Source: Streptosporangiaceae bacterium
GTDB lineage: Bacteria > Actinomycetota > Actinomycetes > Streptosporangiales > Streptosporangiaceae
Length of the DNA stretch: 64,000 bases
NCBI GenBank assembly: GCA_036502085.1
Contig: DASXZD010000018.1
Coordinates: 16,094 to 80,093, forward strand
Reading direction: 5' to 3'
The translations under genes were made by a program, and so were the position numbers. Below are positions 30,261 to 34,895 of this stretch, one piece after another (within the stretch, counting starts at the first letter, position 1; each line of letters opens with the position of its first letter). A model generated the notes under the pieces. The model saw nothing but the letters and a program-made list of their open reading frames with translations, was not told where the DNA came from and ran no database searches.

Positions 30261-32195
30261 ATGTCGCAATCGGCGATCGAAGGTCAGCTACAGGTAAGCG
30301 GCGGGGTCGGGCAGGCCCTGCTGGCCATGCTGGACACCATGGCCAGCCGGGTGCTGGGGCAGCAGCCGGTGGACAGCAAGGGAAATCCCACCGGTCAGGT
30401 CATGTACCTGCAGACGCCCACCGGTCAGCCGATCGATCCGCAGCAGTACGCCAACCCGTGGACCCCGGCGGGCGGCGACACGATGGCGGCCATCACGGGC
30501 AAGTACCTGGCCCCGAACGCCCCGGCCAGCTCGACATCCTCATCCAGTTCCTCTGGTGCGGCCAGCACACCGCCGGCGCCTCAGCTGAACAGCCAGCTGC
30601 AAGCCTCGATAGAGGCCGCGTTCCAGACCTCGCTGCTGGTCGATGAGCTGTACGAGGTGACCGGGGACGGCACCCTGCAGGGCTATCCGACGTCACGGTC
30701 GCTGAGCTTCGCCTACGGCTCGATCATCAAGGGCATGCAGCCGCTGCCTGCGCCGCCTCCGTCGGCGCAGGTGGAGCAGGCGGTGCAGGCCGCCCTGCTG
30801 AAGCTCTACACCTACGACAGCAAGGGCAACATGATCGGCCAGACGCCCGAGTACCAGGCGTACCTGGCCAACCAGATGGCCTGGGCGCAGGCCAAGGCCA
30901 ACTACGCGACCGACCAGGCGTACGCGATGGCCGATCCCATCCTGGGCAGCGCGTGGCCGGAGACCTCCGCGGTCGATCAGACCGCCGTGGATCAGGCGTA
31001 CGACACCTGGATGGCGCAAGGCGCGGCCGACATCGAGCAGGCGCTGGCCACGGTCAGCAGCGTAGGACTTGACGTGCAGGCGGCCATGGTCACCCAGGCC
31101 CGCCAGCTGTTCGACGCGTGGAACCTGGGCATCGCCGGCCTGCCCAGCGAGACGGCCTACTCGATGATCACCCCGACAAACTGGTACGACAGCACGGACG
31201 AGAGCGTCGGCTTCGAGAAGCTCACCGTGTCGTCGAACGACTGGTCCGAGCAGTCGGCCACTGCGTCGAACAGCTACGCCAGCAACTGGTACAACGGGCA
31301 GTCGTCGTCTACCAGCGGCGAAGGCGGCGCGATGTTCATGGGCTTTATGATCGGCGGCGGCGCCTCGCACTCCGACTCCAGCGATGCGCAGGGCGCCTCC
31401 GGCGGCAGCGGCAGCGTCACCACGTTCGACGACCAGACCACCAACGTGACGATCACGTTCGAGTGGGGGCTCTGCCGCATCGAGCGGCCGTGGCTGGTCA
31501 GCGACCTATTCCACATGAGCGGCTGGTACCTGGTCAACGCGAAGAAGAACAGCATCAGCGACGGCACCATCGCCGGCCAGGTGAAAAACCAGCAGCAGCT
31601 GATGCCGATGATCCCGACCGCCTTCCTGGTCGTGCGCAACGTGACGATCAAGGCGGAGAACTGGGGACAGGCGGGCATCGCCCTGGCCCAGGCCAGCCGC
31701 CAGGAGCAGAGCAGCGATCAGAGCAGCTCGAACAGCGAAACCGTCTCGGCCGGCTACCTGTTCATCGGCGGGTCGGTCTCGCACAGCGACGCCCAGGACT
31801 CCGGCCAGGGCTCCAGCGGGGCGCAGAGCTCGGGCAGCTTCTCGTTCAGCGGCGGCTCGGCCGGCGGGACGCTGACCATCCACGGCAGCCAGATCCTCGG
31901 CTGGGTCGGCGAGATCGTCCCGGCCTGTCCGTCGATCGATGACCCCGGCCTGGCCTCGTCCAGCGGCTCGGGCCAGTCCGGCAGCAGCGCCTCGGGCCAG
32001 TCCGCCTCGGGCCAGTCCGGCTCGGGTCAGTCCGGCGGCAGCGGGTCAGGACAGTCGTCCGGCGACCCGGGCCAGTCCGGCGACGATTCGTCCGCGGACC
32101 CCGGCCCGGCGCCCAGCGGACCGACGACGCTGCCGGGTGTCCCGGCCGGCGGATCCACCCCGCCGGTGCAGGTGCCCTCGGCGCCGAGTTCGTGA
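30261..32195 (+). CDS. unknown 644-aa protein (P1), paralogous to P2
   Basis: ATG follows GGAGG. No signal peptide. Ser/Gly-rich linkers. Shares several colinear motifs with the next gene. No family recognised. Confidence 0.8.
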   Translation: MSQSAIEGQLQVSGGVGQALLAMLDTMASRVLGQQPVDSKGNPTGQVMYLQTPTGQPIDPQQYANPWTPAGGDTMAAITGKYLAPNAPASSTSSSSSSGAASTPPAPQLNSQLQASIEAAFQTSLLVDELYEVTGDGTLQGYPTSRSLSFAYGSIIKGMQPLPAPPPSAQVEQAVQAALLKLYTYDSKGNMIGQTPEYQAYLANQMAWAQAKANYATDQAYAMADPILGSAWPETSAVDQTAVDQAYDTWMAQGAADIEQALATVSSVGLDVQAAMVTQARQLFDAWNLGIAGLPSETAYSMITPTNWYDSTDESVGFEKLTVSSNDWSEQSATASNSYASNWYNGQSSSTSGEGGAMFMGFMIGGGASHSDSSDAQGASGGSGSVTTFDDQTTNVTITFEWGLCRIERPWLVSDLFHMSGWYLVNAKKNSISDGTIAGQVKNQQQLMPMIPTAFLVVRNVTIKAENWGQAGIALAQASRQEQSSDQSSSNSETVSAGYLFIGGSVSHSDAQDSGQGSSGAQSSGSFSFSGGSAGGTLTIHGSQILGWVGEIVPACPSIDDPGLASSSGSGQSGSSASGQSASGQSGSGQSGGSGSGQSSGDPGQSGDDSSADPGPAPSGPTTLPGVPAGGSTPPVQVPSAPSS

Positions 32196-32211
32196 TCCAG
32201 GGAGCGCTGGC

Positions 32212-33549
32212 ATGTCTCTCACCGACACGTTCGCTGTCCTCGGGCAGCAGTTTCAGCAGGCGCTCCTGAAGATCTACGAGCCCGAGGTCGGTGGCCAGAC
32301 AAGCCTGATCTTCGTCCCCGGCGGCGTTCCGGTCTCGACGTCCGACGGCCTCGCCGAGCCCGACGCCACCGGGCAGCTCATGGTGAATCCGGCCCAGCTG
32401 ACGGCATGGCTCGACACCGTGGTGGATTCACCCCTTCAAATCGATATCCCTAACGCAGCGCTGCTGGGCAGCACGGTCACGCTCGTCTCGATGACCGCGA
32501 TCTTCCAGACCATTGCCCAGTTCGCCGTTCCGTCCGCCGATCTCGGCAGCCCCGCGGCGGTGCGCGTCGCGCAGGAGATCAGGTCAGCCGCCGCCGACAT
32601 CGGCCCGGGAGTCCTGGCCATCTCGACGGTTCCGTCGGACTGGCCGCTGCCGGATTCGACCGGCTGGAACACGTTCGAGAGCCAGCAGTCCACGGACACC
32701 CAGTCTGAGTCCGGCGGGACGCCGCCGCCCAGGCCGAATCCCCGTATCTGGCAGCTTCGCCAGCTGCCGCAGGTGTACGAGGGAGTGCCCATCACGGCCG
32801 CCAGGCCTGCGCCGGGCGCCGGGCCTGCGCCGGGCGGCGGGCCTGCGCCGGGCGGCCCGGTCAGCGCCGCGGCCGTTCAGCAGGCCTCGTCGCTCGCCCA
32901 GGAGCTGGACACGGCCAGCCCCGGCCCGGCTGACCCCGGCCTGACGGTCGCGAATACCGTCGTGGAGCCTGTGTCAGCGGTCGCGAACGGGGCGACCCTC
33001 CAGCCGCTGGTCACCGCGCAGACCGGGCGGAGGTTCCTGGCCGTCGCCCGCGCCTTTGCCCTGGCTTCGGAGCAGTCGTCGCCGGTGACCACGACTCAGC
33101 AGAGTGTCACGGTCACGATGTCGGTGGACCACATGGTCGCGACGGTGGACCGCTCGGCCTGGTGGCAGGGCAATCTTGTGACCGATCCCGGCTGGTACAT
33201 CCCCGGCGTTCCGCGCGGGCTGTATGTCGGCGAGCCCGCCGACCCGGTGAATCAGCCTTACGCGCTGCCAGTAGCGATCGTGCTGGCCAAGAACCTGTCG
33301 ATCTCGGGCACGTGGAGCAGCGACGACGCCAGCAGCCTGGTCGGCAGCGGCGTGGCCTTCGGCCCGTTCGGGCTGGCCGCCGCGCAGGTCACCTCGGAGA
33401 ACCAGGTGACCACGATCTCCGTGCCCGGCATTTCGCTGATCGCGATGTTCTGCGAGCCGCTGCCCGTGCTGCCGCCCAATGACCCGCCGGCACCGGCACC
33501 TTCAGGATCGGCAACAGACACAACCGAAAGCTCAGCCGGTTCCGGCTGA
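32212..33549 (+). CDS. unknown 445-aa protein (P2), paralogous to P1
   Basis: Start moved to ATG 32212 (MSLTDTFAVLGQQ), 16 nt after the P1 stop and preceded by AGGGAG. The upstream part of the track ORF is Arg/Pro-rich out-of-frame read-through of P1. Confidence 0.8.
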   Translation: MSLTDTFAVLGQQFQQALLKIYEPEVGGQTSLIFVPGGVPVSTSDGLAEPDATGQLMVNPAQLTAWLDTVVDSPLQIDIPNAALLGSTVTLVSMTAIFQTIAQFAVPSADLGSPAAVRVAQEIRSAAADIGPGVLAISTVPSDWPLPDSTGWNTFESQQSTDTQSESGGTPPPRPNPRIWQLRQLPQVYEGVPITAARPAPGAGPAPGGGPAPGGPVSAAAVQQASSLAQELDTASPGPADPGLTVANTVVEPVSAVANGATLQPLVTAQTGRRFLAVARAFALASEQSSPVTTTQQSVTVTMSVDHMVATVDRSAWWQGNLVTDPGWYIPGVPRGLYVGEPADPVNQPYALPVAIVLAKNLSISGTWSSDDASSLVGSGVAFGPFGLAAAQVTSENQVTTISVPGISLIAMFCEPLPVLPPNDPPAPAPSGSATDTTESSAGSG

Positions 33550-33567
33550 AAATAAGGGGGGACTCCC

Positions 33568-34895
33568 ATGTACCAGAGCGTGAAAAATGTGTTCAACTCG
33601 TTCACCGGCCGGTTCGAGGGCCGAGTGCACTGGATGTACGTCGATGTGAAGGGGCTGATCACCACCGGGGTCGGTAACCTGATCGATCCGGTCAGCATGG
33701 CTGTCGTGTTGCCGTTCCAGCACGCCAACGGCGCGGCGGCAACCCAGGCTGAGATCACGGCCGCGTGGACGGATCTGAAGAACAACAGCATCGCTTTGGG
33801 GAAGGCGGGGTACCAGGCCTGCGCCTCCCATAACGACCTGCGGCTGTCTGACCCGGCGATCGACAATCTCGTCAGCTCGAAGCTGGCCAGCAACGAGATC
33901 ACCTTCCTGCGGTCCTTTCCCGCCTTTGCGACTTGGCCCGCGGACGCCCAGCTCGCTGGGATGAGCATGTGCTGGGCGCTTGGCCCGGCGTTCGCCTCGC
34001 AATGGCCCAAGCTGGCCGCGGCGCTCAACGCGAAGGACTGGGCCACGGCCGCCGCCAACTGCAGCATTTCCACGACCGGAAACCCCGGTGTCGCGCCCCG
34101 CAATACCGCCGACATAGCGCTCTTCAACAATGCCGCCGCCGTGGCGAAGAACGGTGCGGACCCGTCGGTCGTCTACTACCCGGGAAGCGTGCCCGCGAGC
34201 TCCGCGGTCGGCCCCGGCAGCGGTTCGCCCGGCTCGACCAGCGGGGCGCCCAGCGGCAGCGGCAGCGGCACGTCCGGTTCGTCGCCCAGCGGATCCTCCG
34301 GCTCGAGCACCTCAAAGTCATCAACCCCCGGCAACACGGCCTCCAGCCCCACCTCCTCCAGTTCCAGCTCCGGCAGCGACCCCTCTGACGGCAGCACCGA
34401 CTCCACCGACCCGTCCTCCGACGACACCGGCACCGGCAGCACGGCGGACGGCGCGGGCTCCGACTCGACCGATAGCACCGGCGACACCAGTGACGGCACT
34501 GACAGCGGCGATGGCTCGGCCGATGGCGGCGCGCCGGTACTGACGGTTCGGCCGATGGCAGCGACAGTTCGGCCGGAAGCGGTGCCACGACCGATGGCAG
34601 CGATGGCTCGACTGACGGCAGCGACGGCGCTGACAGCAGCGGCGACTCGCCGGACGGCAGCAGCGACTCCAGTTCCGACGGCACCGACGCGTCGGGCGAC
34701 TCTACCGATGGCAGCGGCGACTCGTCCGGCGGCAGCGGCTCCGGCGGCACCGACGCGTCGGGCGACTCTACCGATGGCAGCGGCGACTCGTCCGGCGGCA
34801 GCGGCTCCGGCGACAGCGGTGGCTCGACCGATGGCAGCGGCGACTCGGGCGATGGAGGCGGTGCCTCAGCGGATAGCAGCGGCGATGGTTCCTAA
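33568..34895 (+). CDS. leaderless T4-lysozyme-like (GH24-type) protein with a long Ser/Gly/Asp/Thr tail; apparent -1 frameshift near 34530
   Basis: FEGRVHWMYVDVKGLITTGVGNLID. Glu17/Asp26/Thr32 have the same spacing as E11/D20/T26 of T4 lysozyme. The tail continues with the same composition and high GC3 in the -1 frame, ending at TAA 34893..34895. Confidence 0.7.

Follow-up and report, generated by a model that had tools for sequence, protein, structure and literature searches.

Outside phages, an endolysin-type wall hydrolase that has no export signal needs a route to the wall: either a holin, as in phage lysis and type 10 secretion, or a secretion machine, as for type VI effectors. What could play this part for an enzyme that is encoded beside neither? 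The question is raised by three co-directional genes, which we call P1, P2, and P3, in a stretch of 64,000 nucleotides (nt) from a Streptosporangiaceae bacterium (GenBank assembly GCA_036502085.1, contig DASXZD010000018.1, positions 16,094 to 80,093 of the forward strand; hereafter, the window). According to the open reading frame (ORF) listing, P1 occupies 30261-32195, P2 occupies 32212-33549, and P3 starts at 33568. A first-pass annotation, made by reading the sequence, had described two paralogous proteins of no recognisable family followed by a T4-lysozyme-like protein, and had proposed that they might be a lytic or toxin module. We find that P1 and P2 are a conserved pair that occurs beside wall hydrolases of several families, and we suggest that the pair may supply the missing envelope step.

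The P1-P2 pair and its wall hydrolases across genomes

We scanned a genome collection with a 7-sequence alignment as the query and found 21 P1 loci. These include loci from Kitasatospora indigofera, Cellulomonas marina, Mesorhizobium, Rhizobium, Sphingomicrobium, Duganella, and three cyanobacteria. (Gene calls in the loci that we fetched are partly from ORF heuristics.) Where the contig continues past P1, as it does in 18 genome loci, the next gene is in every case a P2 homologue. The gap between the two genes is mostly a few to 20 nt, with the widest gaps at 61-197 nt, and the loci in which it can be read span Actinomycetota, Alpha- and Betaproteobacteria, and Cyanobacteria. Two plasmids also bear the pair. 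The distribution is patchy, and the pair is found on plasmids and beside insertion sequence (IS) elements. Cultured carriers include Kitasatospora indigofera JCM 4646, Cellulomonas marina (CGMCC 4.6945), Paraburkholderia atlantica (plasmid pBC201), and strains of Mesorhizobium and Neorhizobium.

The GH24-type P3 is not conserved across the 21 scanned loci. Of the trio that had been put forward as a possible conserved unit, the P1-P2 pair stands; the full trio with a GH24-type enzyme is confined to close relatives, one other lineage, and loci L044, L068, and L115, in which distant P1/P2-like genes flank relatives of P3. A search of 50,697 phage records and of IMG/VR gave no match to P1, and no PHROG family includes P1 or P2, so we rejected a phage or prophage origin for the pair.

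We then asked what kinds of hydrolase lie near the pair. A signal-less catalytic wall hydrolase is encoded at most two genes away from P1-P2 in 10 of 26 distinct loci, and seven families are represented (positions are relative to the pair):

This window and L028, L029, L036, and L037 (P1 83% identical), position +1: GH24-like (P3)
L034 and L056, between P2 and P1: GH24-like with TIG
L008 (Solirubrobacteraceae), position +1: SLT
L005 (Friedmanniella) and L010 (a second actinobacterium), position +1: Amidase_2 with TIG
L032 (Paraburkholderia atlantica plasmid pBC201), position +1: GH108 with PG_binding_3
L116, position -1, divergent: GH19 with PG_binding_1
L117, position +2: Pesticin domain (E = 2e-42)
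L017 (Sphingomicrobium), position -2: Muramidase PF11860 with PG_binding_1 (E = 1.7e-61)

If the background is 2-10% per locus, which is an assumed and not a measured rate, then the binomial P value for 10 of 26 lies between 4e-11 and 1e-4. Most of the hydrolase genes are co-directional with the pair and abut P2.

In L034 and L056 the gene order is permuted. In this distant lineage the order is P2-P3-P1, with gaps of 4-57 nt. We reached it from a P3 relative on a 1.19-Mb contig, and a second contig has the identical arrangement. Furthermore, the P2 protein of these two loci bears a C-terminal PG_binding_1 domain.

P1/P2 neighbours are missing from 74 of the 80 P3-family loci, and hence we regard the P1-P2 pair as the conserved core and the hydrolase as a swappable accessory. 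Overall, P1-P2 is tied to endolysin-type hydrolases both statistically and by architecture, and it is tied to peptidoglycan via the fusion in P2. The association suspected from a single operon thus extends to seven hydrolase families and to a permuted gene order, which is strong guilt by association for P1-P2: a constant pair occupies the position expected for a holin or a delivery function.

The operon and its three products

The features of the operon are as follows (positions in the window; all are on the forward strand, +; aa, amino acids; pLDDT, predicted local distance difference test):

30137-30176 (+): hairpin with a perfect 18-bp stem and a 4-nt loop, directly past the stop of the upstream gene (30114)
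30251-30255 (+): P1 ribosome-binding site GGAGG, 5 nt ahead of the P1 start codon
30261-32195 (+): P1, 644 aa, founding member of an uncharacterised superfamily (ORF)
30459-30584 (+): P1 residues 67-108, Pro/Ala/Ser/Thr-rich linker of variable length (alignment; pLDDT below 50)
31302-31424 (+): P1 residues 348-388, Ser/Gly-rich insert 1 with the hydrophobic Gly-rich core GAMFMGFMIGGGASHS (predicted disordered)
31425-31967 (+): P1 residues 389-569, beta-rich C-terminal domain in common with P2, which contains insert 2 (hhalign)
31710-31832 (+): P1 residues 484-524, Ser/Gly-rich insert 2 with the core SAGYLFIGGSVSHS, much shorter in P2
31968-32192 (+): P1 residues 570-644, non-conserved Ser/Gly/Gln/Asp/Pro low-complexity tail (alignment)
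32200-32204 (+): P2 ribosome-binding site GGGAG, between the P1 stop (32193-32195) and the P2 ATG (32212)
32212-33549 (+): P2, 445 aa, P1 paralogue that lacks the long Ser/Gly inserts (ORF and homologue N-termini)
33091-33510 (+): P2 residues 294-433, homologous to P1 389-569 (hhalign)
33554-33561 (+): P3 ribosome-binding site AAGGGGGG, past the P2 stop (33547-33549)
33568-34200 (+): P3 N-terminal domain, residues 1-211, signal-less and GH24-like (predicted structure and profiles)
33616-33618, 33643-33645, and 33661-33663 (+): codons of the P3 catalytic triad, Glu17, Asp26, and Thr32
34201-34895 (+): P3 low-complexity Ser/Gly/Thr/Asp tail, which reaches the stop at 34895 only after frame correction
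34528-34541 (+): apparent 1-nt indel in the P3 tail (third-codon-position GC switch, three-frame translation, and DGSADG in two frames)

P1, P2, and P3 form a genuine three-gene operon. The intergenic gaps of 16 nt (P1-P2) and 18 nt (P2-P3) and the purine-rich ribosome-binding site ahead of each gene are as first annotated. A longer ORF for P2, starting at 31939, was dropped: it overlaps P1 and is contradicted by the N-termini of the homologues. The strong hairpin that had been noticed upstream was also recovered. By RNA folding, the stem-loop has an energy of -40.7 kcal/mol (z = -6.67), and 0 of 200 shuffled sequences were as stable. It is probably a terminator that marks the 5' boundary of the operon. 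(It does not appear in the list from a consensus terminator scan because there is no T-run behind the hairpin.)

The window is rich in GC (about 0.72). The GC content over the operon (30001-34000) is 0.68-0.69 versus about 0.72-0.74 in the flanks, and close relatives of the operon occupy different genomic neighbourhoods. These observations are consistent with horizontal acquisition. Judging from the ORF list, the genes on both sides are cellular, unrelated, and of housekeeping type. Between 28500 and 37000 there is no holin-like ORF (35-200 aa with a transmembrane-grade segment), except for antisense ORFs inside P1. No small exported-protein gene, as a candidate for immunity, adjoins P3 in the window, and no secretion-system genes were noticed beside the operon, where the neighbours were judged from the ORF list only. 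A tandem-repeat scan found expandable low-complexity segments in all three genes.

The view that P1 and P2 belong to no recognisable family was upheld by every resource that we searched. Neither protein has a match at or near threshold in Pfam-A, NCBIfam, PADLOC, or PHROGs (the sole family listing for P1 is a far-sub-threshold match in NCBIfam), and searches of PDB by sequence and by profile returned nothing meaningful for either. Among the anti-phage defence models of PADLOC-DB, P1 and P2 have no match and P3 has a weak match at chance level (E = 0.016). We found no description of the family in the literature. P1 is 100% identical to a hypothetical protein from a Streptosporangiaceae metagenome-assembled genome; its 113 full-length homologues are all labelled "hypothetical," and none of them has a Pfam domain. 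The superfamily is large: a P1 profile search of 1.84 billion cluster representatives gave 1288 clusters (at 50% identity) with E <= 1e-3 and 520 with E <= 1e-10. Many members are 460-510 aa long and align across the entire P1 profile. Ten distant members that we sampled have no fused Pfam domains, apart from a member that is probably a DctM chimera.

P1 and P2 are not significantly similar by pairwise BLASTP (E = 0.43). The profiles of P1 389-569 and P2 294-433 align with 99.4% probability (hhalign, E = 1.6e-21), and the P1 query matches the P2-like ORFs of L026 (E = 2.7e-13) and L025 (E = 1.1e-7), in cyanobacterial and Duganella loci. Judged by their profiles, then, P1 and P2 are true paralogues in the C-terminal domain. 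Three shared motif blocks had been proposed at first; the profile alignment bears out blocks 2 and 3, and block 1 has no statistical support for this P2. P2 itself has pairwise matches to homologues from Rhizobium (E = 3e-31) and Friedmanniella (E = 2e-20).

The N-terminal segment of P1, ahead of the linker, is conserved, with invariant Y49, G55, W67, and P69. In the family alignment, the two Ser/Gly-rich inserts of P1 keep their position and composition across phyla. They also resemble each other (hhalign E = 3e-5, 73% probability), a weak sign, given their low complexity, of a duplication within P1. Tandem repeats are present in the tail of P1 (31961-32082) and in the middle of P2 (32795-32854).

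The AlphaFold2 (AF2) model of P1 is of moderate confidence, with a mean pLDDT of 60.6 and 70-86 in the structured parts. In order, it has a small N-terminal unit, the disordered linker, a helical domain, and the beta-rich C-terminal domain with its two disordered inserts. Using this model, the best Foldseek match in PDB has E = 0.53, with all query-normalised template modelling (TM) scores at or below 0.11, and the best match in BFVD has E = 0.12. We considered whether P1 might be related to the MACPF/CDC, aerolysin, ClyA/YaxAB, or gasdermin families and rejected this, as no Foldseek match in PDB or BFVD lies below E = 0.1.

Hydropathy (Kyte-Doolittle, 19-residue window) gives no transmembrane-grade hydrophobic segment in P1. 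Segments that reach 1.5 (maximum 1.68) occur in P2 and in the N-terminal domain of P3, and these are internal, never N-terminal. The reported lack of signal peptides and transmembrane anchors in all three proteins agrees with these profiles, where signal peptides were judged by hydropathy and inspection and not with a dedicated predictor.

For P3, the sequence evidence for membership in GH24 is borderline when taken alone. Pfam's PF00959 scores 13.3-17 bits on P3, which is below the gathering cut-off of 22.3, and 13 of 34 P3 relatives match PF00959 at E <= 0.1 (best 2.3e-5). A PHROG endolysin matches P3 at E = 8e-6. A profile of the 34 relatives matches the lysozyme of T4 gp5 (E = 1.9e-4) and T4 lysozyme (E = 0.008), and aligning the P3 family to the single sequence of T4 lysozyme with hhalign gave 37% probability (E = 3.5e-4). 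Since this last result was only suggestive, we predicted the structure. The AF2 model of the N-terminal domain has a pLDDT of 95.9 and a predicted TM score (pTM) of 0.90, and its best Foldseek matches in PDB are T4 lysozyme, gp5, and T4 lysozyme fusions, with 181-188 aligned columns, a probability of 1.00, and target-normalised TM scores of 0.60-0.67. A pesticin-T4 lysozyme chimera is also among the best structural matches.

The catalytic triad that had been proposed from residue spacing fits this structure. Glu17, Asp26, and Thr32 align with E11, D20, and T26 of T4 lysozyme and with the E/D/T of T4 gp5. All 34 relatives keep Asp26, and Glu17 and Thr32 are each kept in at least 90% of them. 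According to the model, the N-terminal domain of P3 is a divergent, T4-lysozyme-fold predicted muramidase with its triad intact; its sequence places it as a divergent sister group of GH24, not a canonical member. The family of this domain has at least 784 proteins of about 210 aa, labelled GH24 lysozyme by the Joint Genome Institute (JGI), and in some members the domain is joined to TIG or PG_binding_1. No domain for receptor binding or translocation is present in P3: the lysozyme domain begins at residue 1 and is followed by low-complexity sequence only.

The 3' end of P3 needs a correction. The first-pass coordinates agree with the ORFs for P1, P2, and the start of P3. The end given for P3, 34895, was obtained by reading through a frame change: 33568-34895 is 1328 nt, which is not divisible by 3, and the in-frame ORF ends at 35058 (496 aa). 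The GC content at the third codon position (GC3) changes frame at about 34520, and the Ser/Gly/Asp-rich tail carries on in the +2 frame up to the stop at 34895. One frame codes for the motif DGSADG at 34510-34527, and the other frame codes for it at 34542-34559 (32 nt apart). From the GC3 switch and the motif in two frames, we place a 1-nt indel at 34528-34541. The uncorrected 496-aa ORF was dropped as the true product because of the GC3 and repeat evidence; its end is out of frame and rich in Ala/Arg/Pro. Either a real mutation or a mistake in assembling a GC-rich repeat could explain the indel. It sits inside the low-complexity tail, so the catalytic domain is unaffected, and the P3 relative in L028 has a similar tail in one unbroken frame. 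The tail also has a 66-nt tandem repeat at 34674-34812 (2.1 copies, 98% identical).

Other recurrent neighbours

Regulators of the STAND or SARP type are frequent beside P1-P2. Some carry BTAD, alone or together with AAA_16; others combine AAA_16 with the winged helix of MalT or are of the LuxR type. For example, in L001, L012, and L013, a protein of about 1060 aa with matches to AAA_16 and/or the MalT winged helix is encoded just upstream of the pair. These three are among six Rhizobiales loci (L001 at 4081-7776, and L012, L013, L018, L021, and L033 at the corresponding positions) that have a conserved 150-aa protein and no hydrolase. The 150-aa protein has no family or PDB match.

Other neighbours of the pair are found in fewer loci. 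In the Paraburkholderia locus, a gene for a 233-aa protein with 2-3 transmembrane segments overlaps the stop of the GH108 gene, and a 529-aa membrane protein comes next. Immediately behind P2 in L117 (9325-10230) and L022 (11714-12760), there is a conserved protein of about 300-350 aa (phmmer E = 2.6e-84). Both loci are proteobacterial, and the protein, which is 301 aa long in one of its forms, has no match to any family or in PDB. In L020, which is actinobacterial, a gene for a caspase-family Peptidase_C14 protein (11369-12286, reverse strand; E = 8.5e-20) is convergent with P2. This single case is reminiscent of protease-activated cell-death effectors, by analogy.

Loci of the P3 family have neighbours of their own. 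In 21 of the 80 loci (L060, L062-L064, L066, L070, and 15 more metagenome loci), a conserved small protein ends exactly where the P3-like gene starts; examples are L062 1060-1542 and L066 7439-7969. The N-terminus of this protein is hydrophobic and resembles a signal, and its sequence includes a ..VYCGTRG.. motif. The arrangement looks immunity-like or inhibitor-like. Among the 80 loci, it never occurs in those that have P1-P2.

In L039 (1381-7889), a P3 relative (68% identical) is preceded directly by proteins of 698 and 773 aa with no Pfam match and followed by a GH25 muramidase. We tested the two large proteins as homologues of P1 and P2 and rejected this (hhalign probability below 4%). The 698-aa family also adjoins P3 relatives in L040-L042 and L090, and it is found 5.6 kb upstream of P1-P2 in L022. 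These arrangements suggest a wider network of uncharacterised partners for P3-family lysozymes.

The L044 operon (209-4026) encodes a P3 relative, a 463-aa hemopexin-repeat protein, and a distant P2-like protein. Towards its C-terminus, the 463-aa protein shares homology with a 259-aa protein that lies just upstream of P1 in L009 and L031. This Kitasatospora-type 259-aa protein has H..D and HxH motifs, and we considered it as an LAS-type zinc peptidase. Pfam and PDB did not support the assignment, and it was not counted as a hydrolase.

How the pair might act on the envelope

We propose that P1 and P2, once synthesised in the cytoplasm, join as a heteromer that would engage the envelope. It might make contact through the two conserved Ser/Gly-rich loops of P1, with their short hydrophobic Gly-rich cores, and, in some lineages, through the peptidoglycan-binding domain of P2. 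The heteromer would supply a membrane-breaching or wall-targeting step, which is the holin's job in phage lysis cassettes, and the co-expressed hydrolase would then cut the wall. The outcome would be controlled lysis of the producer or release from it, or the killing of a neighbour once the proteins are released. Because a signal-less endolysin-type enzyme that lacks a holin cannot reach the wall unaided, the pair is the element that would provide the missing step. Four parts of this proposal are inferences: that the heteromer forms, that it acts on the membrane, whether the target is the producer or another cell, and that the enzyme is active.

That P1-P2 and a hydrolase form a non-phage, holin-less envelope-breaching module, for self-lysis, release, or killing after release, is the explanation that we favour, with a confidence that falls a little short of even. 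It is also possible, though we would put it more tentatively, that P1-P2 is a new and widespread soluble two-component envelope-breaching class, with its own fold, that replaces the holin or delivers interchangeable hydrolases. If it is a new class, then its presence in Actinomycetota, Proteobacteria, and Cyanobacteria, outside all current catalogues, is something we suggest with that same caution.

Among known systems, the module operates most like a phage holin-endolysin cassette or a type 10 secretion system (T10SS), yet it fails the tests of a holin and of a phage context. As in phage cassettes, a signal-less endolysin-type hydrolase is encoded beside partner genes, the hydrolase family is swapped freely (GH24, GH19, GH108, SLT, amidase) while the partner is constant, and several of the P1-P2-linked hydrolases carry the usual PG_binding_1 or PG_binding_3. 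Unlike in phage cassettes, the partner is not a small membrane protein but a pair of soluble paralogues of 445-644 aa with no transmembrane helix. The pair does not lie in a phage or prophage, phage collections contain no match to it, and it often occurs with no hydrolase at all. The window thus has neither the holin nor the phage setting by which a lysis cassette is recognised.

A T10SS is a holin and an endolysin (and a spanin in diderms) that operate outside a phage to release signal-less cargo (PMC10847048). Examples are Serratia ChiWXYZ, Yersinia YenLC, and Salmonella TtsA. The P1-P2 loci are similar in that they have endolysin-type hydrolases outside phages and in that signal-less proteins are linked to a hydrolase. 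In T10SS loci, a dedicated regulator is often present nearby (PMC10847048), and SARP/BTAD, LuxR-type, or AAA_16/MalT-like regulators flank many P1-P2 loci. They differ from a T10SS in that the window has no holin (and no spanin candidate was noticed, although none was specifically searched for), in that P1-P2 is the conserved element and not an interchangeable cargo, and in that P1-P2 is also found in monoderm Actinomycetota. A membrane protein past the hydrolase is seen only in the Paraburkholderia locus.

The remaining comparisons concern the enzyme and the mode of breach. P3 shares its fold and its catalytic residues with the activity domain of pesticin and with T4 lysozyme (PMC3390615), and P1-P2 locus L117 has a true Pesticin-domain gene. 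A bacteriocin of the pesticin or colicin kind is recognised by fused receptor and translocation domains and an immunity gene (PMC3390615). In contrast, P3 has a disordered Ser/Gly/Asp tail in place of a receptor-binding or translocation domain, and the window has no immunity gene. Any delivery function would have to reside in separate proteins. With T4 lysozyme and gp5 (GH24), P3 shares the predicted fold and the spacing of Glu, 8 residues, Asp, 5 residues, and Thr; it differs in having 14-18% identity and about 45 extra residues and in being chromosomal and non-phage. Bacterial gasdermins offer a functional analogy only. Both they and P1-P2 lack signals and transmembrane segments and could breach a membrane from the inside, and one P1-P2 locus (L020) has the convergent caspase-family protease. 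Unlike in gasdermin systems, no protease is regularly associated with P1-P2, which is a two-protein system. There is no structural similarity (the best gasdermin match of P1 has E = 3.8 and a target-normalised TM score of 0.23).

Several observations weigh against an envelope-breaching module. P1-P2 has no nearby hydrolase in 16 of the 26 loci (about 60%), so the pair must also function without one. No pore-former in PDB or BFVD resembles the P1 model (pLDDT 60.6), and, on reading their sequences, the Ser/Gly loops are not clean amphipathic hairpins. A protein that simply makes membrane lesions needs no peptidoglycan-binding domain, yet P2 has one in some lineages. Finally, the 233-aa protein of Paraburkholderia could be a real holin in that locus, which would make P1-P2 the cargo and not the machinery. 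This is the core of another explanation, under which P1-P2 is a signal-less two-component cargo (a binary toxin, for example) and the hydrolase merely opens the wall of the producer, in the manner of type 10 secretion. T10SS cassettes are derived from phage lysis, release signal-less cargo that has folded in the cytoplasm, and sit in toxin operons (PMC10847048), and the Paraburkholderia order of P1-P2, GH108 with PG_binding_3, and membrane proteins resembles a cargo followed by an endolysin-holin pair. If release were provided elsewhere, then the 16 hydrolase-free loci would be expected. However, an endolysin alone cannot cross the membrane, and holin-like ORFs are absent from the window and were not seen in most hydrolase-bearing loci; spanin candidates were not noticed in diderm loci, where no search was aimed at them. 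The PG_binding_1 fusion and the interleaved P2-P3-P1 order link P2 to the wall and not to a distant target, and P1 and P2 match no known toxin family. We consider it unlikely that the pair is cargo.

Could the operon instead be an antibacterial weapon, with P1-P2 escorting or translocating the hydrolase into competitors as a multi-protein bacteriolysin or bacteriocin that acts from outside? Pesticin, a toxin with the T4-lysozyme fold, has a periplasmic immunity protein (PMC3390615), and enzymes of the P3 family have the look of effectors elsewhere: 21 of the 80 P3-family loci have the immunity-like small gene that ends at the start of P3. But that gene is never in the loci that bear P1-P2, and neither a candidate for immunity nor a secretion signal is present in the window (nor was a secretion-system gene noticed in its ORF list, which is all that was consulted). 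The Pesticin-domain gene in L117, the peptidoglycan-binding domain fused to P2, the patchy distribution with plasmids and IS elements alongside, and the GC dip of the operon (0.68-0.69 versus about 0.72 in the flanks) would all suit a weapon. Against this, P3 has no receptor-binding or translocation domain, and the wall of a diderm cannot be reached from outside without an outer-membrane step, which nothing here accounts for. On balance, a weapon of this kind seems rather improbable to us. A further explanation would be that there is no functional link at all: the pair would do something unrelated in the cytoplasm, and the hydrolases would be there by chance or as leftovers of prophage lysis cassettes. 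Most of the loci are indeed hydrolase-free, 74 of the 80 P3-family genes have no P1/P2 neighbours, and the genes that flank the operon are unrelated and of housekeeping type. Chance does not readily account for seven hydrolase families in 10 of 26 loci, mostly co-directional and abutting P2, for the permuted order with gaps of 4-57 nt in a distant lineage, or for the peptidoglycan-binding domain fused to P2; and prophage remnants are at odds with the lack of any P1 match in 50,697 phage records and IMG/VR and of any PHROG family for P1 or P2. We consider the lack of a link very improbable.

If the pair does breach or target the envelope, as we tentatively favour, then it would give bacteria a new way to lyse in a programmed manner, to release proteins, or to kill one another. 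It would also be a source of new lytic tools, and many genes now labelled "hypothetical," in about 1300 clusters at 50% identity, could be annotated.

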